Positions 34,673 through 59,880 of a stretch of DNA of 64,000 nucleotides are shown one piece after another. How positions within the stretch are numbered: position 1 is the stretch's first letter; the number at the start of each line of letters is the position of its first letter. The notes beneath the pieces were generated by a model. It ran no database searches. It was not told the origin of the DNA and was given only the letters and a program-made list of their open reading frames with translations. Both the position numbers and the translations under genes were made by a program. This DNA comes from a phage. The DNA lies in sequence record OZ346201.1. The stretch is one strand, 5' to 3'.

Positions 34673-37012
34673 ATGAGTATGTGGTCTTTCGATTTTGAGT
34701 CATCCGGTTTGCTGGAAGACCCAGATCTTTATTATCACTGCGGTCTGTTTAAAGAGCTGAATAAGAACCGTTTTATGCTGTTCCTTCCTCTAAATGACCG
34801 CACACACTACTCCGAGGAGGATATAGAAAAGGCTAAGAACTTCATTCTGTCAAAGAAAACTCTTTATAAAGATTTTGAAGTTCGCATAGCAGATTTTTCG
34901 GAGTTGGAAGGTTGGCTTACAGGCAATTCTGACTGGTCACCAACAGCTTTGAACTGCCATAACTGCTACAGTTATGACTTTATGCTAATGGAAAGATTAT
35001 CCGGTATTCATTTTGATATGTTCCGTGATCCTAAATGCATGGGGACTATCAACGACCACCAGGTTAACCTGTTTGATACGTTGGCTATGAGCCGAATCTT
35101 GTGGCCTGATCGCCCTTTACCAAAAGGTTGTCCGGACGCTGTATTCAACCCGGTTACTAAGAAAATGCAACCTGTTGGTCCTCACGGCCTTATGGCATGG
35201 GGCTACGCCCTTGGTAACCAGAAAGTTCAAATTGATGACTGGCGCGATCTTCCGTTGTGGAAGTATGTGGATCGTGTATTCGAGGACGTTATCATCCAGG
35301 AGCTGCTCTGGAAAGAGCTGGTAGCGGAATCAAAAGGTGTATTCTACGGCAAATCTGACATGCAGAACTTTATGTACGATCCAGCCAAAGAGAAGCCGAA
35401 AGGGTTCAAGAAGATCACCTGGAAGAACGCATTACGTCGAGGCATGCTGCAGCACTTCCTGATGGAGCTGCAGGCCCGTCAGGGTGTATACTTCGACATA
35501 GATGGAGCTATTGCTTTACGTGACCGTTGCGATGCGTGGATGAAAGAAATCGCTGATCGTGTTGAACCACAACTACCTTTAAAAGAGCTGTCAATGTCTC
35601 AGCGGCCCAAGTTCCCTGAAAAGCCGTTTAACCAAGACGGGACAATCTCTAATAATGGTTGGAAATGGTTAAAAGATAAGCTTGGCTATCCTGTAGACAT
35701 GAGTGCTTTAGAGTTCAAAGCCCCGCCTAAGCGAGCATTTACCTCTACAGGAGATGTCAGCAAGATGGGGATAAAATGGTGTGAAGAGATGGGCTGCAAA
35801 GACCCCGATAAGATGGCTGATTTCTTGAGAGGCTATATTAAGGGCACCTCCACACCACAACCCTTACCTAAAGAGCTGATGGATCAGGCAATAAGTGATC
35901 TGCAGCAGAAGCGAATGCCTGACTGCAAGATACCTATGAAAATCAGCAATCAGGACGACATCAAGCGATACCTAATCAGTGCTGGTTGGCTCCCAACAAT
36001 GTGGAGAACTAAAGATGTAACTAAAGACAGCAAGAAGAAAGCTTTACCTGATGCAGATGTTGATGCACGAGTATATGCATATATGGACGAGCTTTTGGAG
36101 TCAGAGTATTGTGACCTAATTATCAACTTCTGGAACAAAACTGATGCTAAGTTCCAGACAACCGTGCACAAGTTCCGAAGCTTTCCTAACTCCGAAAGGA
36201 TTAAAAAGGAAGTATTCGGGAAAATACGTAGAAAAGCCAGGGCACTTATTACTTCTCCGCAACTGAAAGATACGTTTGGACACCTATGCCCAAATCTTGA
36301 AAAATTGAACGGAGAGATGGCTAAAGATATCGTCTTGTGGTTATCATTGCGAAACCGCAGATCGGTCCTTGATCCAATCAAGGAGGATAAGGTTGATACT
36401 GGTCTTCTTAATCACCCACGTTTGAAGATTGACCATAAGCTTCCTGCTAAAAGCTCTGGATTAACAAACACTTCCAGACAGAAACACAGTATTTGTGCAA
36501 ACATGCCTAAACCATCTCCTAAAGTGGTTATGGGTAAAGAGATGCGTAGTCTGTGGGGTGTTCCTCCGGGATACTTTGAGATTGGTATTGACGGGTCCAA
36601 CTTAGAACAGCTTATCGGGGCTTGGGGTGCCTTTGAGTTCGACAACGGCCTGTATTATGATGTTGTAAGTAACGGAGACGCACACCAAAACAATGCTGAG
36701 GCATATACAAAAGTGGCAGGCAGAGAGGTGTCCCGTAACGACGGTAAACCTATCACGTATGGGGTTATGTACGGGGCACAAAAAGATAAAGTTGCAGATA
36801 TGTTGGACATCTCCCCAGAGTTACAGGTGTTTGATGGACTCTGGGATGCCAACCCAGGTCTTAAGGGGCGCAAAGAGGATCTGGAGAAATTCTGGAAGCA
36901 ACAGGTAAGAAGTTTATCTACTCTTTTGATGGTCATGCTATCTGGACCCGATCTAAACACTCTTTACTTAATGCATACCAACAAAATGGCGGTGCATCGT
37001 TGTGTGACTTAG
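34673..37012 (+). CDS. DNA polymerase, family A, with 3'-5' exonuclease (reading frame breaks near 36900)
   Basis: Exo I FDFESSGL; Pol A motif A DGSNLEQ and motif B REVSRNDGKPITYGVMYGAQ; polymerase similarity continues in another frame from about 36901 to the stop at 37093-37095 (..FDGHAIW..NAYQQNGGASLCD..WYDEGV..). Confidence 0.75.
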   Translation: MSMWSFDFESSGLLEDPDLYYHCGLFKELNKNRFMLFLPLNDRTHYSEEDIEKAKNFILSKKTLYKDFEVRIADFSELEGWLTGNSDWSPTALNCHNCYSYDFMLMERLSGIHFDMFRDPKCMGTINDHQVNLFDTLAMSRILWPDRPLPKGCPDAVFNPVTKKMQPVGPHGLMAWGYALGNQKVQIDDWRDLPLWKYVDRVFEDVIIQELLWKELVAESKGVFYGKSDMQNFMYDPAKEKPKGFKKITWKNALRRGMLQHFLMELQARQGVYFDIDGAIALRDRCDAWMKEIADRVEPQLPLKELSMSQRPKFPEKPFNQDGTISNNGWKWLKDKLGYPVDMSALEFKAPPKRAFTSTGDVSKMGIKWCEEMGCKDPDKMADFLRGYIKGTSTPQPLPKELMDQAISDLQQKRMPDCKIPMKISNQDDIKRYLISAGWLPTMWRTKDVTKDSKKKALPDADVDARVYAYMDELLESEYCDLIINFWNKTDAKFQTTVHKFRSFPNSERIKKEVFGKIRRKARALITSPQLKDTFGHLCPNLEKLNGEMAKDIVLWLSLRNRRSVLDPIKEDKVDTGLLNHPRLKIDHKLPAKSSGLTNTSRQKHSICANMPKPSPKVVMGKEMRSLWGVPPGYFEIGIDGSNLEQLIGAWGAFEFDNGLYYDVVSNGDAHQNNAEAYTKVAGREVSRNDGKPITYGVMYGAQKDKVADMLDISPELQVFDGLWDANPGLKGRKEDLEKFWKQQVRSLSTLLMVMLSGPDLNTLYLMHTNKMAVHRCVT

Positions 37013-37095
37013 TTGGAATACTCATGCACCACCAGATGGTGAAGCGTGGGTGGTACGATGAAGGTGTTCGTCGTATTATTTATTACCATAAATAA

Positions 37096-37361
37096 CATTG
37101 TGGCTTCATAGAGTAATCTATGTCGAATAACCTCTTTAACTGCGGGAAGCCTAAACCTTATGGCAAGGTAATCCGCAACGAAGCGCTCAAAAGAGCGAAC
37201 GCTCAGAGGCCATTCCGAAAGGAAGTAGACCAGCAAGTGCGGTCGAAATGGGAGGATTCCTGTGGTTGCTTATCATAGGAATATGAGATGGTCCGATCCT
37301 ACGTGAAAACGTATGGCTATGCACGTAATGGTGCGGGTAGCTTAACGACCTACCTGAACTA
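37096..37361 (+). other. intervening segment inside the split DNA polymerase gene (intron or insertion candidate)
   Basis: Lies between the polymerase body and the ORF carrying the Pol A C-terminus; stops in the relevant frames; contains a ~52-codon ORF (MSNNLFNCGKPKPYG..). Confidence 0.4.
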
Positions 37362-40531: not shown

Positions 40532-40900
40532 ATGGAACAAATGAACGATCAAGAGTCGGTTGCGATGAACGAGCAAGAACAACCTCAAGAATTTTTCTTA
40601 GGGTTAAGTAAAGATCAAGTGTCTCTTTTGCTAGTGCTTTCTTCTTTCATGGGAAGACTTCAGGAGCTCACACAACAACCGGAGGCTGAACAATTATTTC
40701 AGGCTCTGCGTGAAGAAGAAAAATATCGTCGTTTGGACTATGCCTTAGGTTGGGTAGCTCAACAACGAGATATGCTGATGGCCCTCTCTGGGACCACAAG
40801 TTTTGCAATGGGCCTGTTGGCTCAAGTTCAGGACAAATTAATTCAAGCAGGGTTTGCACACACGGCAAACACTAACGAAGAACAAGGAGACAAAGAATGA
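40532..40900 (+). CDS. hypothetical protein
   Basis: 122-aa ORF, SD GGAGA, immediately upstream of SSB gene. Confidence 0.5.
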   Translation: MEQMNDQESVAMNEQEQPQEFFLGLSKDQVSLLLVLSSFMGRLQELTQQPEAEQLFQALREEEKYRRLDYALGWVAQQRDMLMALSGTTSFAMGLLAQVQDKLIQAGFAHTANTNEEQGDKE

Positions 40901-45137: not shown

Positions 45138-45327
45138 GCTTAAATCTGCATGGAACATCGCTGTGGGGGACGAGATCCGCATCCCAGGTGGAAAGACCAT
45201 TATGAAGATATCTCGTATCGAGTACGAAGGTGATCGTGTATTTCATATCTTTGCAGAAGATGGTCGAGAAATTTATATACAGGCAGGCTCTCACATCTAT
45301 ATTCGTAAGAAAGGGGACGACAAATGA
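45130..45327 (+). CDS. hypothetical small protein
   Basis: ATG 45130 with AAGGAGGG upstream. Confidence 0.45.
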   Translation: MFKLKSAWNIAVGDEIRIPGGKTIMKISRIEYEGDRVFHIFAEDGREIYIQAGSHIYIRKKGDDK

Positions 45328-45653
45328 CAGAGATCATCATTTCAACTGCAGGGTATGTGTTCCTGACAATCATTGCACTGACCATTCTGGTGGTGGTATA
45401 TGGAATTGTTATTCTCCCTATTCTTGAGACAATTAGTTTGTGTCGGTGTTGGAGAAAGGCTTACGGTCCACAGCCGTGGAAGGACTGGCCCCACCTGGTG
45501 CACATAGCGTTCTCTTATGCTTATGATCACGCCAGCAGTGCATGCATAACCGGGTATCACGCCCACAACTGGAGCTGGGAAGGGTTGAGGAAATGGAATG
45601 TTACAAAGACCATACCTCTGCGCATGTACAAACCTAAAAACAAAGACAGCTGA
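45324..45653 (+). CDS. membrane protein
   Basis: N-terminal hydrophobic helix TAGYVFLTIIALTILVVVYGIVILPIL. Confidence 0.5.
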   Translation: MTEIIISTAGYVFLTIIALTILVVVYGIVILPILETISLCRCWRKAYGPQPWKDWPHLVHIAFSYAYDHASSACITGYHAHNWSWEGLRKWNVTKTIPLRMYKPKNKDS

Positions 45654-45966
45654 TACTTGAAAATCCCTGGCATATCAAGTGTAAGGAGGATTTCTAAAAT
45701 GGATTTCCTCCTTTTGATATTTCACCGGGCCAGATATTTTAAAATTCTTAGAAAATCAGAAAATGGATCGAAAACTAAAATGGATTTTTCAAGACAGGCA
45801 CGATAAGATGTGCTGCTCATTCTATCGTTCGCACCGTACTTTAAGTCACTATTCCAGATTTTTCCGCACATACTCTCACCCTTCTACCAGAACTTTCCCA
45901 GCTTACCTCTGACCTTTTATAACAATAAGTCCATTATTATCAGAAAGTTTCGGCACATCTCTTTCG

Positions 45967-46140
45967 GTACTCGATCTGTTTTTCATTTCAAAGACCTGAT
46001 TTTCTGAAAATTTTTCTCGATAAATTTCTTAGTACTCGATCTGTTTTTCATTTCAAAGACCTGATTTTCTGAAAATTTTTCTCGATAAATTTCTTAGTAC
46101 TCGATCTGTTTTTCGTTTTCTGAATCGGATTTTCTGGAAA
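45967..46140. repeat. tandem 65-bp direct repeats (two exact copies plus degenerate copies), iteron-like
   Basis: Unit GTACTCGATCTGTTTTTCATTTCAAAGACCTGATTTTCTGAAAATTTTTCTCGATAAATTTCTTA at 45967-46031 and 46032-46096, then diverged copies with GATTTTCTGG / AAATGGATTTT submotifs. Confidence 0.85.
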
Positions 46141-46321
46141 TCGTTCCAGCTCTCGACCTGAAATTTTTGGGGACGAAATCGATTTTTCGTTTTCAGAAAT
46201 GGATTTTTAAAATTTCTATATGGGAATATTTTATGGGATACTGTTTTATAGGAAATTGTTACGGAGGGTAATTAGCATGCTAATTAAATTTATTAAATGC
46301 GAGGAGTTCTCATTTAGAATT

Positions 46322-46535
46322 TTGAATGATAATCATTCTCGTTTGCAGAATAACGGGCAGGCCCGGTGATTGTCTCCCGGCCCCTACTGCCCCGGCTTGT
46401 TATTATAGTATCACACAGGACAAAGAAAGCAAGGATTTTTTGCATAAATTTTTAAATGATAATGATAACCGTTCTCATTTTATGCAGCGCCCATCCCCGG
46501 TGGTTGTCTCCCCCGTCACCGGTGCCTGCCGTCCT
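46322..46535 (+). other. two copies of a conserved GC-rich structured element (candidate RNA structure or protein-binding site)
   Basis: AATGATAAT..GCAG..GGGCAGGCCCGGTGATTGTCTCCCGGCCCC at 46322-46395 and a diverged copy at 46452-46535; nested hairpin GGGCAG..CCGG-loop-CCGG..CTGCCC; third copy inverted at 56134-56162. Confidence 0.45.
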
Positions 46536-46735
46536 TTCGATAGGTATATCGTGCCACCTGGCGGGGCCGCTGTCAACACTTTTCAAAAAATTTTTCTAAC
46601 CTGATGCGCTAACCGCTGCAACCTGGCGGGGTCAGCCTGGCAGGACCTAACTGACCGGGTAGGAGAGAATGAAGGCTTGTAAACCTGGTGGGCCTATGCT
46701 ACAGGATAGGTAACAATTGAAGAGGAGGTACAAAA

Positions 46736-46903
46736 ATGAAAGGTAATATGATCCCCCTAGAAAATGTAGCTATTAATGACGCTGAGGCTATCGCCCTGGT
46801 TGAAAAGGCTATGGCGGGAGCGTTGGAACATAAAGAAGAGTACGAAAAATGGTGGTTAACCTGGCGGGGGCGGCAGGTGGATTCTATCATAAAAATAATT
46901 TAA
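46736..46903 (+). CDS. hypothetical small protein (55 aa)
   Basis: ATG preceded by GAAGAGGAGG; below track length cut-off. Confidence 0.4.
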   Translation: MKGNMIPLENVAINDAEAIALVEKAMAGALEHKEEYEKWWLTWRGRQVDSIIKII

Positions 46904-46911
46904 AATAGTCG

Positions 46912-46939
46912 TTGACAACAAGGTTAATCATGGTATTAT
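46912..46939 (+). promoter_or_regulatory. sigma70-type promoter
   Basis: AAAATAGTCG-TTGACA-N16-TATTAT. Confidence 0.6.
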
Positions 46940-46989
46940 TACCCTACAAGGTGAACAACACCGCACTAACCAGTAAAGAGGATAAATTT

Positions 46990-47187
46990 ATGAACGCATA
47001 CGGGATCAAAGTACGTCGCAACACTCGCCAGGTGGTCACCAATCAAGTGATTTGCCGGGTGGATGTAACCATCAACAACGGGCAAGGCCTTTATAAATTT
47101 CGTCGCGGTCATAGCTATACCCTGCAACAGCTTAATCGTTGCGCCCTGACAAAAGGTCAGATCAACCATTGGTTTAATAAAAAATAA
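46990..47187 (+). CDS. hypothetical small basic protein
   Basis: ATG 46990 with AAGAGGA upstream; track start 46912 would overlap the promoter. Confidence 0.5.
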   Translation: MNAYGIKVRRNTRQVVTNQVICRVDVTINNGQGLYKFRRGHSYTLQQLNRCALTKGQINHWFNKK

Positions 47188-55740: not shown

Positions 55741-56048
55741 TCGCTATTACGCCAACCGTTTTAGATTGGTATCGGCAACGCATAGCGCCTCCGCTGGCTA
55801 TCTTCAAAGATGCGGAAGCAAAACAACGCCGGATCTCAATACATGAGATCATCAACCTTAACGCTGGAGGCACACCATACCGCCCAGGACCTGGCCGTGA
55901 GATGGACAATACATTGGCGATCCTGAAGATACGCCGTAAACGGTCCTCCCTTACGCTGGATTCATTACACACAATGCAGTCTCCGTTCCAGGTGACTGGG
56001 AAACGGATCGCCAGGTCCTGGACAAAGGCCAATGACCGGACCGTATAA
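55737..56048 (+). CDS. hypothetical protein
   Basis: 103-aa ORF, ATGA overlap. Confidence 0.5.
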   Translation: MIAITPTVLDWYRQRIAPPLAIFKDAEAKQRRISIHEIINLNAGGTPYRPGPGREMDNTLAILKIRRKRSSLTLDSLHTMQSPFQVTGKRIARSWTKANDRTV

Positions 56049-56183
56049 ATAAAAAGTGTTTTGGTACTGATTTTGGGGTTGACTTGTTCGGCCCCTTTTG
56101 CTATTCTTATTAAACGGGCGGCACTTGGGAACAGGGGGAGACAATCACCAGGCCTGCCTGTCATATAAGAACTATAAAAACCG

Positions 56184-56212
56184 TTGACATCTGCCAGGGG
56201 GTGGGGTAACAT
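56184..56212 (+). promoter_or_regulatory. sigma70-type promoter
   Basis: TTGACA-N17-TAACAT. Confidence 0.5.
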
Positions 56213-56266
56213 TTATCTTGAAGGGGCAAAGGTGCCCACACAACAACCAGAAGAGAGGAAAACACT

Positions 56267-57479: not shown

Positions 57480-59880
57480 TCCCCCTACCATAAACGGCCC
57501 TACCTGGCAAGTGGAATAATTGACGAGCCATCAATCCCACACACTGTACAAATATACATGTAAAATAACTATTGCATAACCTTTCATTGTGTGGTAGCGG
57601 TGCTATTTTTTACCTGTTTTCCTTCCAAAATTGCACGTAATGCAGCTATTGCACAAAATTTAACCTGATGCACATCTCCAATATCCTGTCAACAACTAAA
57701 AATCTTTATAAGTCATACACTTACACAGCATCGAAAGCGTGTTCTACGCGAAAAATCGAGTATAACTATAGCCGCCAGATCTCAGAATTCACGTACGCAC
57801 GCCATTCTATAGCCTGCAAAGTATTTATTCCAACCACAGAATAACGGAATAGTCAATACCTGAATAAAATAATTATTCGTTTAAACTGCATAACATAAAT
57901 CAGCTCAGGTGTCAACATTTTTCGTAAACAGTCTGAAATTGTCACTGTGAGTTATCATAAACAGAGAAATCTTTAGTCGTATAATGTTTACTGTACGTTA
58001 CTATACTGACTGGAATCATTAGATGACTAATAGAAAGATAAGAAATAATTAACAATACAATTATTTTACCTGTAACAATAAGACAACTATGCAAACGAAT
58101 GGCATGGCGCGACGGAGTCGCGACATAATATAAAAGCAGTAACCATCACCCCCGTGATGGTTTGTCTGCAATCTATTAATCAGATCATAGTTGCCTTGTA
58201 TTCAGTTAATCATGACATAATAAGCAAGGCAACTATAGATCTGCTAATAGTTGCCCTGCTTTTATATTATGTCATATATTATTAACTTGTTAATTGTTAA
58301 CTTGCTAATTGTTTTCATGCAAACGAATGTCATGGCTTATCCTATCTGTGTAAACAGTTAAGGTGTAAACTATCCAGGCGTAAACAGTCTATGCGGGAAC
58401 AATCTATACGTGAACAGTGAAACATGAAATAATAACAGTCGTTATTGTGTCGAAAGTGTATAAGGTGTCAGACAAGTTTTTCTCCTCTTTGTCAAGTGCT
58501 GCATGAAAAATTTACAAGCTTGTATGGTAGCATTTTTGCGGCCCTGTTTACATTCAGCGATGTATGTATAATCCTTGTTGTGTGGGCGTTTAGACGTCTA
58601 GACGGTCAGAAGTCTGCAGGTTAATACCTAATCTATCGGCTGCTAACTATATCCCACACAAATAGTAAGAAATATAATTGTTATGTGCGTAAACAGTAAC
58701 TCATGTTATCAATCCCTGTATGTATCGCCAGTGGTGCGCATAATGGGTATTATGTTAAATTGCCCGTAATGATAACTATTCTCACAATGATAGGTATTCT
58801 CATTCACTCCCACAAGATAGGTTGCAAATGTTGTGCCACTGTGTGAACGGCCTAACCTATTAATTTGCCTCACTGCCTCGATATTTGAGAATTGTTATAA
58901 GAATGAGAAGTATTCCCATTTCGTCCGCCTGGCAGCACTCCAGTCGCTACCGCTCATGACAGGGCAGAACTAGACCCTCTTCAGATATTTCTGGCTGACT
59001 CTTCAGGTCTGTGTGGGAAAAGCCAACCTCTCCGGCGGCGGGGAGGGGGTCAATTAAAAAAAATTACGTGGTGCATGAAGCGCTCTTCAGGTAAGGCATG
59101 TGTTATGGGATGAAACCCTCTTCAGGCAATGATATTTGTGGGTGTGATATTTGCTGGAAAGCCAGATATGACGGGACTCCTGGCGGGGCAGGGGTAGTAC
59201 AGACAGGGAAAATATGGGGGATGTAGTTGGGGAAATTGATCAGACAGGTAGAGTATGGAATATGTTACAAGTATGTTAAATAGGGAGGATGAATATCTGC
59301 AGGATTTGTGTGTAAAATCAAAGACTTAAGTGGTGTTGTGGTATTTTCTATAAATAATTCAAGTTTAATAGGTAATATTTGTCTCTATCCACTTTGTGTG
59401 GTAAACAGATTCAGATGAAATTGGTTTACAAGTGTATACATAATATACAAATTAAAGATACAAGAAACCCCCCTCCCCCTTCGGCTACCATTCACCTTTT
59501 CCTCTGACTGGTACTTAAACACTTATTCAGACTCTTCAGGTTATCACCCATATATCATATGGCAGTGACTGGTGTCCTCCGGCCCCTCTTTCGTCACCCG
59601 TCCGCTTCGCCATGCTAATGCCATAGCCAATGGTTCGGTTGTTCACTCTGTTCACTCAGGTGTATCTCCATACCCCTTCAAACCGAAGAGACAAAATCCT
59701 AATTACTCGGTAAAAGAAAAGAGAAGAACTTAATTTTATCAGGATAGGCAAGAATGTCAAGGCATGACTGCTCACTAAACAAGCAAACAGTCATGTGTGG
59801 AAGGTAAGTGATTGTGGTGGTGGGAAATTTAGTTGAAAGATGTGTTATAGGTGCGCTTCCAGCACTTTGGCCGGGCAGCT
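57480..59880. other. 2.4-kb ORF-free, repeat-rich region between convergent gene blocks (candidate origin / packaging / control region)
   Basis: No ORF of 60 aa or more on either strand; six CTCTTCAG(G) copies (58.97-60.18 kb); about nine GTAAACAG-like copies (57.9-59.4 kb); inverted TAGTTGCC and GACATAATA motifs at 58.1-58.3 kb. Confidence 0.6.

Follow-up and report, generated by a model that had tools for sequence, protein, structure and literature searches.

A conserved non-coding region of rV5-like myophages combines an iteron array with predicted Fur boxes and facing promoter-like sites

Results

Position and coding potential of the locus

The phage of sequence record OZ346201.1 is an rV5-like E. 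coli phage, from which a window of 64,000 nucleotides was analyzed. The locus described here is a gene-free stretch of 1.1-1.3 kb situated about 12 kb inside one end of the 136-kb genome (11.7-13.3 kb from that end). A previous sequence-only reading had noticed repeats and reiterated motifs at 45660-46740, and these were confirmed as real. The following features were recognized, all positions being those of the window:

45734-45795, plus strand: phased A-tract block (ATATTTTAAAATTCTTAGAAAATCAGAAAATGGATCGAAAACTAAAATGGATTTTTC) holding GATATTT and AAATGGATTT motifs
45796-45966: variable spacer with indels, 73.8% identity and 38% invariant columns
45967-46031, plus strand: iteron unit A, an extra exact 65-bp copy, 100% identical to 46032-46096 (private duplication)
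46032-46096, plus strand: iteron unit A' (GTACTCGATCTGTTTTTCATTTCAAAGACCTGATTTTCTG with a AAAATTTTT tract), 91% identity among relatives
46097-46160, plus strand: iteron unit B, 68% identical to unit A, 91.2% identity among relatives
46148-46215, plus strand: degenerate iteron unit C (CTCGACC...CGATTTTTCGTTTTCAGAAATGGATTTTT), aligning with the iteron core of other genera
46216-46289: AT-rich stretch of low stability between iterons and Fur boxes, 72-78% AT
46296-46343: predicted Fur-box cluster 1 (by consensus match), a weak box at 46296-46314 and the strong box AATGATAATCATTCTCGTT at 46325-46343
46322-46351, plus strand: rightward promoter-like site P1 (TTGAAT, 18-nt spacer, CAGAAT), its spacer filled by the Fur box
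46356-46377: GC box 1 (GGCAGGCCCGGTGATTGTCTCC, 22 bp), 85-90% conserved in other genera
46402-46432, minus strand: leftward promoter-like site (TTGCTT, 19-nt spacer, TATAAT) facing P1
46455-46479: predicted Fur-box cluster 2 (by consensus match), a pair of 19-mers that overlap with a 6-nt offset (AATGATAATGATAACCGTTCTCATT)
46486-46512: GC box 2, with the core GGTGGTTGTCTCC at 46499-46511
46548-46576, minus strand: second leftward promoter-like site (TTGACA, 17-nt spacer, CACGAT), its spacer holding ACCTGGCGGGG
46576-46735: variable, indel-rich and GC-rich tail, with a second ACCTGGCGGGG at 46621
46736-46903, plus strand: 55-codon ORF, probably no conserved gene, matching PHROG 21957 (function not assigned)
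46912-46939, plus strand: predicted strong sigma-70 promoter (TTGACA, 16-nt spacer, TATTAT, with TG) that would start the downstream small-gene block
56137-56158, minus strand: third, inverted GC box in the ORF-free gap 55741-56266, without Fur box

The description of the locus as non-coding was upheld, because no coding frame is conserved across relatives. Doubt had also been cast on the annotated 92-aa ORF at 46326-46604, and with good reason. This ORF is annotated in several related records and matches PHROG 14993 (E = 5e-65), but the match simply mirrors nucleotide conservation among annotated relatives. Its ATG lies inside a Fur box, its frame varies from 6 to 132 codons across genera and comprises 6-28 codons in most of them, and it is frameshifted in rV5_ev156, where a 1-nt deletion rewrites the last 30 codons. 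Moreover, it has no Pfam match, and the ORFs annotated at the locus differ from record to record. That this or the other short ORFs are real genes is regarded as highly improbable. The 55-codon ORF has lost its ATG in ECP26 and is disrupted by frameshifting indels in slur16 and Mangalyan; the window itself differs from the other relatives by a 1-nt indel. Judged from this sequence comparison the ORF is probably not a conserved gene. The neighboring proteins, here and in other genera, revealed no informative Pfam or PHROG function, and neither tRNA genes in a scan of the 64-kb window nor Chi sites were found.

The strongest constraint was observed in the right half. Among relatives, the region 46290-46575 is 96-97% identical, 90-94% of its columns are invariant and a single column has a gap, whereas identity is 89.9% in the adjacent coding sequence and 74-87% in the spacers. 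The core was recognized in 244 phage records at 71-88% identity, and no homologue of it was found in E. coli genomes. As a sufficient explanation, the proposal of a module boundary is refuted by the conservation of the locus across genera with unrelated flanking genes; the window contains no homologue of the proteins that flank it in the other genera.

The iteron array and the adjoining AT-rich stretch

The two exact 65-bp units (45967-46031 and 46032-46096) were recovered by repeat search, and Tandem Repeats Finder reported a period of 65, 2.3 copies, 98% matches and a score of 297 for 45967-46118. A third unit (46097-46161) was detected at 68% identity and a fourth, degenerate one near 46161. 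Hence, the degenerate units described as decaying copies do exist; they are, however, the older paralogues B and C, which occur in every relative, and do not represent the decay of a recent expansion. When one unit was used as query, exactly one place was found in each of 114 related Vequintavirus records, and the 65 bp are missing at this position in all eight aligned relatives. The exact pair is an isolate-specific duplication, and the conserved feature consists of the older repeats A, B and C. The present isolate has four iterons because one 65-bp unit was recently duplicated.

The iteron core of about 40 bp is common to five genera and present in every genus in three copies of one orientation, with a period of 52-78 bp. 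Unit A' fits the five-genus core gGGt.CTCGATCg.tTTTTCaattTC.aaAtcGtATTTT, and unit C is the best conserved iteron (97.8% identity, 93% invariant columns). The motif is confined to the locus and occurs nowhere else in the 136-kb genome, including the other 76 kb of EdH4. The locus thus has the direct repeats of an iteron-type origin, namely at least three conserved copies in one orientation and with regular spacing. The reiterated motifs are likewise concentrated here: all three plus-strand AAATGGATTT and all three GATTTTCTG sites of the window lie inside the locus, as do four of the five matches to AAATGGATTTT with up to one mismatch. To the left, the A-tract block has a mean pairwise identity of 95.4% and 87% invariant columns among nine Vequintavirus genomes, compared to 74-79% identity in the flanking spacers; other genera carry the analogous modules GATATTTG and AAATGGwTTTC. 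Between subfamilies the iterons diverge whereas the Fur boxes stay constant, which fits a host factor acting on the boxes and a phage factor acting on the iterons. The iterons may be read as an array bound by a DNA-binding protein that the phage encodes.

The AT-rich stretch is of low duplex stability. The 50-mer 46202-46251 (duplex free energy -52.2 kcal/mol, window mean -65.6) is only the 8th least stable in the window, and many promoter regions as well as a locus at 58 kb are of equal or lower stability. The least stable DNA lies at 58.0-58.3 kb, beside the terminal repeat; the A-tract block ranks 13th.

Predicted Fur boxes and promoter-like sites

The right half (46.29-46.58 kb) is organized in two tandem units 136 bp apart. 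Each contains predicted Fur operators over a weak rightward sigma-70 promoter-like site, then a GC box, and then a facing leftward promoter-like site. This module, the most constrained part of the locus, had been missed before. The strong box at 46325 has two mismatches to the classical 9-1-9 Fur consensus, or one if either variant is accepted per position, and the sites 46455 and 46461 have three each. Cluster 2 matches the E. coli 19-mer GATAATGATAATCATTATC at 16 of 19 positions and is invariant among relatives save two columns. The window holds five sites with up to three mismatches to the 9-1-9 consensus, compared to none in 30 shuffles, and three of them fall in the locus (46325, 46455 and 46461); the motif AATGATAATCATTCTC was found eight times versus 0.98 expected. 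By consensus match these sites are candidate Fur operators. Further candidate boxes lie in the terminal repeat, at 58760-58925.

Comparison with other phages and bacteria pointed in the same direction. One to five boxes occur in all 15 loci from seven genera, and each of the 15 has a box orthologous to the strong box. A 29-bp distance between neighboring boxes is common in these loci, and TTGA..GAAT always underlies the last box. The orthologous box of phage 4MG is a perfect AATGATAATCATTATCATT, and phiWec186 contains GAGAATGAGAATGATTCTC with the same 6-6-1-6 layout as in GATAATGATAATCATTATC. Letter for letter, the phage consensus AATGAGAATcATTCTCATT equals the Fur box published for Xanthomonas, and it shares 84% identity with the consensus of B. 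subtilis and Shewanella (PMC1790865); the Fur boxes of A. baumannii are similar strings (PMC3055841).

The TTGA and GAAT columns of the P1 hexamers are invariant across genera; by consensus P1 is weak (8 of 12 positions, under the threshold of the promoter scan), and the second rightward promoter-like site, P2, has a poor -10 and -35. Both leftward sites are near-misses in the window: the first was not called because its 19-nt spacer is too long, and the second because its -10 element CACGAT matches at only three of six positions. In other genera, 11 of 13 loci have a leftward promoter that passes the scan, and its -10 element lies 52-55 nt past the rightward one. The positions of both promoters are conserved. 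Between 45500 and 47100, the plus-strand promoter at 46912-46939 is the only site passing the scan (11 of 12).

With up to three mismatches, the GC box is present in two copies in the window versus none expected, and the segment 46450-46575 including GC box 2 is 97.4% identical among relatives. In the tail behind it, 82 of 167 alignment columns contain gaps and 32% are invariant. At the third GC box, a predicted plus-strand promoter (56079-56107) would read through the element in the same promoter-to-GC-box order. As a separate observation, the 22-bp GC box is more conserved than the surrounding genes. When the window was searched for targets of the loop-like motif UUGUCUCC, a single 8-mer turned up apart from the copies themselves; it lies at the ribosome-binding site belonging to the gene at 40897 and corresponds to chance level.

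Search for RNA structure

The elements downstream of the repeats had been described as GC-rich and structured. They are indeed GC-rich (32-48% AT at 46350-46400 and 46475-46650) but not detectably structured. Their folding, GC box included, was no better than that of shuffles on both strands (z from -0.9 to +0.65), and RNAalifold found no consensus structure among 14 sequences. A structured RNA was rejected on these two grounds. Rfam searches with the window locus and seven related loci, at gathering and permissive thresholds (E up to 10), gave nothing relevant. A non-coding RNA may be encoded here, as also suggested from the sequence, but Rfam, folding and RNAalifold lent this no structural support.

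Discussion

The locus is best explained as a conserved non-coding control region of the rV5-like myophages (Vequintavirinae and Stephanstirmvirinae) that consists of two halves, the A-tract block with the iterons at 45.73-46.22 kb and the predicted Fur boxes with the promoter-like sites at 46.29-46.58 kb. We give roughly even chances to the more specific reading that an iron-gated, i.e. Fur-gated, face-to-face promoter switch lies beside a binding array for a phage protein, in which Fur would be the factor occupying the conserved boxes. In each unit, two facing start sites would be about 45 bp apart. If iron is plentiful, Fe2+-Fur would polymerize on the boxes and occlude the rightward promoters, and the bound Fur would act as a roadblock to the leftward transcripts about 45-90 nt along their path. 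If iron is scarce, the boxes would become clear, permitting non-coding transcription in both directions across the region, leftward into the AT-rich stretch and the iterons and rightward to the early-gene block. The region would thereby act as a switch set by iron.

Several known systems resemble parts of this arrangement. Fur operators of Enterobacterales and other bacteria, described by the 19-bp GATAATGATAATCATTATC and in 7-1-7 or 9-1-9 readings, share with the locus the hexamer-phased overlapping boxes and the arrays of two to four, and their overlap with the -35/-10 interval has a possible counterpart in P1; the 19-bp 9-1-9 palindrome is identical to a published consensus. In contrast, the boxes reported here reside on a virulent phage upstream of no recognizable iron gene, binding to them is predicted, and they have G at position 3 of the hexamer (GAGAAT) more often than the E. 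coli consensus does. Face-to-face promoter switches are known from the temperate coliphages 186 (pR/pL) and P2 (Pe/Pc), where, as proposed here, convergent sigma-70 promoters are separated by a few tens of bp and an operator array covers one of the two. The present phage, however, is virulent, the role of repressor would presumably fall to a host metalloregulator and not to a phage CI or Apl, and no gene on the leftward side is directly served by the locus. Literature searches on the locus and on the origin, the transcriptome or Fur boxes of these phages found nothing. The one publication pairing "Vequintavirinae" with "fur box" deals with sit operons of lambdoid prophages.

One question is whether the region acts in replication. 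The sequence-only reading regarded iterons beside an AT-rich stretch as an origin layout, and its description stands insofar as the region is non-coding and iteron-like repeats adjoin AT-rich DNA at 46175-46300; no tie to replication was found. In such a plain iteron origin, a phage initiator would bind the repeats and the AT-rich stretch would melt, and the palindromes and promoters would be incidental or serve neighboring genes. The three or four repeats in one orientation, spaced by 52-65 bp and with a conserved core, the uniqueness of the motif in the genome and its divergence with the phage lineage, as expected for initiator-iteron pairs, are consistent with this explanation, and the iteron core GATCTGTTTTT fits all nine specified positions of the E. 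coli oriC 13-mers GATCTnTTnTT. However, the core of other genera contains GATCG or GATCA instead of GATCT. No recognizable initiator gene lies next to the iterons, where the neighbors have no assigned function and are not shared between genera; a conserved upstream neighbor of about 275 aa in four genera is likewise without assigned function and has no homologue in the window. Between 45654 and 46980, neither the DnaA box TTWTNCACA nor the IHF site WATCAANNNNTTR was present, and the GC skew shows no inflection at the locus. The skew in these phages follows transcription, and a skew analysis of rV5 was uninformative on the origin (PMC3606486). Moreover, the greatest constraint rests on the Fur and promoter module and not on the iterons, and a rival locus with the least stable DNA and further repeats exists by the terminal repeat at 58.0-58.4 kb. 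A plain origin is therefore a possible but not a favored explanation. Iteron-type origins such as lambda ori, P1 oriR and RK2 oriV have a repeat period of about 20 bp, whereas the period at the locus is 52-78 bp and no initiator, DnaA box or IHF site was found there. Transcription-activated origins are known from T7 (the primary origin at phi1.1A/B) and T4 (oriF and oriG). Both types share with the locus direct repeats of one orientation, an AT-rich neighbor, nearby promoters and a single array per genome. It seems similarly possible, in our tentative estimate, that the half with the iterons and the AT-rich stretch serves as an origin activated by transcription, the Fur gate tying initiation to the iron status of the host.

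Alternatively, the region might serve transcription without any replication role, with the iterons binding an early or middle regulator of the phage. This regulator and Fur would jointly determine when, or in which direction, transcription proceeds at the head of the early-gene block. We consider this somewhat less probable than an origin. The loci of other genera are promoter-dense on both strands (5-9 sites versus 1.8-2.8 expected), a strong sigma-70 promoter and a series of unassigned small genes follow directly downstream of the locus, and in CB7 the sigma-70-like promoters are mainly found among such short ORFs, likely the early-gene region (PMC7344957). On the other hand, a candidate regulator was not found, the iterons are 100-350 bp away from the nearest promoter-like site in the window, and computation cannot separate this explanation from an origin. 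A comparable, rather low likelihood is assigned to tandem Fur-repressed sRNA genes, where by analogy to known cases P1 and P2 would give rise under iron limitation to short rightward RNAs acting in trans on host or phage mRNAs. RyhB of E. coli and the tandem PrrF1/PrrF2 of Pseudomonas are Fur-repressed sRNA genes, and the locus resembles them in that it comprises two tandem units, both equipped with a predicted Fur box and a promoter-like site, and lacks a conserved ORF. U-runs about 85-100 nt downstream (46434-46439 and 46581-46584), a terminator-like hairpin that was called in GAP31, Mydo and phiWec186 some 200 nt behind the same promoter, and the GGTGRTTGTCTCC motif common to both units also argue for such genes. 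However, there is no sequence or Rfam similarity to these sRNAs even at the permissive threshold, folding is at shuffle level, no terminator was called in 46300-46740, the hexamers of P2 are poor, and the GC box sits more consistently downstream of the opposite-strand promoter. Furthermore, the two units share only a box of 13-22 nt, unlike PrrF1/PrrF2.

Roles in packaging or DNA entry appear far less plausible. Several public records, R7 (at 69 nt), phiWec189 and A112b among them, start within the locus or beside it, as a pac site or genome terminus might cause; but record starts at tandem repeats are also expected from assembly breaks. The 459-bp direct terminal repeat of EdH4 maps to 58471-58929, so that the genome end is 12 kb off and the locus is therefore no packaging site; for Vequintavirus the idea is refuted, and we attach almost no probability to it. 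In T5, the boundary of first-step transfer is an injection-stop region of non-coding repeats. The present locus is, like it, a repeat-rich non-coding block about 8-9% from the genome end beside small early genes that are transcribed toward this end; every gene from the locus to the end is small and encoded on the plus strand. A boundary element of the first-entering segment would nevertheless be an improbable function here: the comparison is an analogy, there is no sequence relation, the virion type is another one, the locus lies outside the terminal repeat, and two-step injection is not known from phages with contractile tails.

Returning to the iron-gated switch, the conservation of its layout across a group of therapeutic-type phages suggests that these lytic phages read the iron status of their host, although the boxes may instead be bound by a phage-encoded protein with a Fur-like site preference. 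The wider proposal, that a therapy-relevant lineage of strictly lytic coliphages (the rV5, phi92, PVP-SE1 and phAPEC8 groups) has wired Fur into a face-to-face promoter switch gating non-coding transcription into the iterons, by which iron would license an origin or the early program, is offered as a speculative and rather unlikely one. The locus also provides a single, precisely delimited candidate for origin mapping. Phages of the Vequintavirinae and related groups have a broad host range and are widely isolated for use in biocontrol and therapy. Laboratory broth is rich in iron, whereas the gut and infected tissue contain little of it. If the proposal is true, conserved operators for host Fur on a virulent phage would make the outcome of infection dependent on iron availability, which would bear on the testing of phage efficacy.

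Genomic setting of the repeat locus

The window derives from an rV5-like E. coli myophage, a Vequintavirus with a genome of about 136 kb, and 122 phage records matched 45300-47100 at 80-93% identity in megablast searches, with EdH4, Gotham and WalterGehring at the top. The locus (about 45660-46740) fills the gap separating the small plus-strand ORFs 45324-45653 and 46736-46903 and is enclosed by a long plus-strand gene block at 19.7-57.4 kb. A terminal redundancy of 458 bp has been reported for EdH4 by Korf et al. (PMC6563267); in the EdH4 record a 459-bp direct terminal repeat was confirmed, which maps to 58471-58929. Hence, the genome ends fall within the window, the locus lies 11.7-13.3 kb from a physical end, and it was rejected as genome terminus or packaging site.

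Some side observations concern the records themselves. Sixteen GenBank "Campylobacter phage" entries match this E. coli Vequintavirus locus (45300-47100) at about 92% identity, and Salmonella phage R7, classed in Demerecviridae, has a Seunavirus-like locus; mislabelling seems likely in both cases. Moreover, a group I intron (37080-37315, plus strand; Rfam RF00028, 64.7 bits, E = 4e-14) directly follows the 779-codon ORF 34673-37012.

Tandem repeats and iterons

The 65-bp tandem repeat that had first drawn attention to the locus is real (TRF: 65-bp unit x2.3 at 45967-46118, 98% matches, score 297), and the repeat search recovered the two exact copies, followed by one of 68% identity and a degenerate fourth. 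The small flanking motifs are likewise locus-specific, since all three plus-strand AAATGGATTT and all three GATTTTCTG sites of the 64 kb are found here. The copy number does vary, but only in this isolate or its assembly: a single unit used as query matched exactly one place per record in 114 of 114 related records, and eight aligned relatives show a clean 65-bp absence at the position of the exact pair. The pair is not a conserved feature; the conserved objects are the older iteron units A (present here twice, at 45967-46031 and 46032-46096), B (46097-46160) and C (46148-46215), with unit C best conserved at 97.8% identity.

An iteron core of about 40 bp, gGGt.CTCGATCg.tTTTTCaattTC.aaAtcGtATTTT, usually followed by an A/T tract (AAAAAATTTTT), aligns the units of Vequintavirus, Seunavirus, Certrevirus, Mydovirus and Henunavirus, each with three copies per genome spaced 52-78 bp. 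Phapecoctavirus and Justusliebigvirus have other repeats of 62-72 nt at the equivalent position, and the motif was not found in the remaining 76 kb of EdH4. Because the iterons keep their place but change in sequence from one phage lineage to the next, their binder is probably a protein encoded by the phage. The cores contain GATC, and a DNA N6-adenine methyltransferase is annotated at EdH4 108389-109207.

Conservation and coding capacity

Sensitive blastn found the segment around 46289-46441 in 244 phage records at 71-88% identity, spanning Vequintavirus, Seunavirus, Certrevirus, Mydovirus, Henunavirus, Phapecoctavirus and Justusliebigvirus, where the matching sequence mostly bears no annotation. 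An exact degenerate pattern retrieved only ten contigs from IMG/VR, all of 83-152 kb. Every retrieved locus has an ORF-poor gap of 0.8-1.4 kb at the corresponding place, and the window holds no homologues of the proteins flanking it in other genera. Identity among Vequintavirus is 96-97% over 46290-46575, where 90-94% of the columns are invariant, compared with 89.9% for the adjacent CDS and 74-87%, with many indels, for spacers. In sum, this is a non-coding locus of deep conservation.

A coding reading was rejected, in agreement with the doubt cast on ORF 46326-46604 in the sequence-only reading: its ATG lies within a palindrome, it shrinks to 6-28 codons in most genera and it is frameshifted in rV5_ev156, while its PHROG match only reflects annotated relatives. 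The 55-codon ORF 46736-46903 has a good ribosome-binding site, but its ATG is lost in ECP26 and its frame is broken in slur16 and Mangalyan, so that the non-coding stretch may reach as far as the promoter at 46912.

Predicted Fur boxes and facing promoters

The following features are referred to below (window coordinates).

45734-45795: A-tract block upstream of the iterons, nearly invariant
46175-46300: AT-rich stretch between the iterons and the Fur/promoter module, eighth for instability in the window
46322-46351, plus strand: rightward promoter-like site TTGAAT-18-CAGAAT, spacer filled by box 1 (46325-46343, the strong box of Fur-box cluster 46296-46343)
46356-46377: GC box, 22 bp, directly downstream of the rightward site
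Same position as in other genera, minus strand: leftward promoter-like site TTGCTT-19-TATAAT
46499-46511: GC-box variant after box 2 (Fur-box cluster 46455-46479)
Second Fur-box, promoter and GC-box unit, minus strand: leftward promoter-like site TTGACA-17-CACGAT
56158-56137, minus strand: GC box copy 3, inverted
46325, 46455, 46461, 55411, 58786: candidate Fur sites (9-1-9 consensus, at most 3 mismatches)

The motif AATGATAATCATTCTC has eight window sites at up to three mismatches versus 0.98 expected, and the classical 9-1-9 Fur consensus has five, versus none in 30 shuffles. The Fur box that was derived from Fur-regulated receptor genes of Xanthomonas has exactly the sequence of the phage consensus, AATGAGAATcATTCTCATT, and is noted in that paper to share 84% identity with the consensus of B. 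subtilis and Shewanella (PMC1790865); similar strings are listed as Fur boxes of A. baumannii (PMC3055841). Phage 4MG carries a perfect AATGATAATCATTATCATT, and phiWec186 a 6-6-1-6 hexamer layout. One to five boxes, often 29 bp apart, are predicted in 15 of 15 loci, the last one always over the same promoter-like hexamers. The boxes stay constant while the iterons diverge across phages of E. coli, Salmonella, Klebsiella, Cronobacter, Enterobacter, Erwinia, Pectobacterium and Proteus, which fits a host factor acting at the boxes.

The hexamer columns of the rightward site are invariant across genera, although its score of 8/12 is below the pass mark of the promoter scan, which calls only the strong promoter at 46912 in this locus. 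The leftward promoter facing it passes in 11 of 13 non-Vequintavirus loci, its -10 element lying 52-55 nt beyond the rightward -10. What is conserved, then, is an arrangement of two promoter-like sites that face each other around the GC box, in which the predicted Fur array would cover one promoter and lie in the path of the other. At GC box copy 3, a scan-called plus-strand promoter (56079-56107) reads through the element in the same relative sense.

Copy 3 lies in a 525-bp ORF-free gap (55741-56266) with a further scan-called plus-strand promoter (56184-56212) and no Fur box. At 46359-46361 and orthologous positions in the related loci L001-L021 a two-state polymorphism (GGCAGGyCCGG vs GGCACCCCCGG) recurs within Vequintavirus and within Certrevirus, with no second linked change seen in these loci. 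Another motif, ACCTGGCGGGG, occurs on the plus strand only, exactly at 46556 (GC-rich promoter spacer), 46621, 46859 and 53744 (hairpin foot) and with one mismatch at 59178, in the 13 kb that lead up to the genome end; the other 76 kb of EdH4 lack it. In loci of other genera (L006 2130-2260, L007 2150-2270, L008 2140-2262) a direct repeat CTTTACAAATCTTTACAAA follows the Fur and promoter unit and lies directly upstream of the leftward promoter. Its reverse complement, GTAAA-N5-GTAAA, resembles CpxR/OmpR-family sites. A conserved element of about 90 nt follows, ending in a terminator-like hairpin; neither repeat nor element is present in the window.

Interpretation of the locus

We give roughly an even chance to the locus being an iron (Fur)-gated switch of face-to-face promoters adjoining a phage-specific iteron array; here, that Fur binds, that the promoters are active and what recognises the iterons are our inferences. 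A replication origin in the iteron and AT-rich half, a less likely role, would be compatible with the layout: the iteron array is unique, the leftward promoters are aimed at the AT-rich stretch and the iteron core fits the oriC 13-mer pattern GATCTnTTnTT; however, neither an initiator nor, at the locus, DnaA or IHF sites or a skew inflection were found, and the region beside the terminal repeat is a stronger candidate on composition and also has Fur-like boxes. These surroundings (58000-59300) are a rival origin candidate. Just left of the terminal repeat come the window's least stable 50-mers (58019-58068, 58261-58310) along with tandem repeats of 15 bp (58278-58418); the terminal repeat itself carries three Fur-like boxes (58768, 58786, 58902) as a second Fur-box site.

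Three other readings compete with these: sRNA genes in tandem under Fur repression, a platform for transcription switching alone, and an entry boundary like that of T5. The structured elements suggested in the sequence-only reading did not hold up, since folding was no better than shuffles on either strand and no consensus RNA structure was found; an Rfam search of the locus gave no match.

As for the proposed Fur-gated switch, genes for the iron-dependent ribonucleotide reductase NrdAB, for a glutaredoxin and for the Fe-S enzymes NrdDG lie at EdH4 113031-119525 and would plausibly explain why a lytic phage should sense iron. We found no report on Fur boxes, transcript maps or the origin of these phages, and the rV5 paper offers no more than a box labelled "non-coding" and an uninformative skew analysis. 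Fur operators, iterons and convergent promoters are each of a known kind; their combination on a virulent phage lineage is new.
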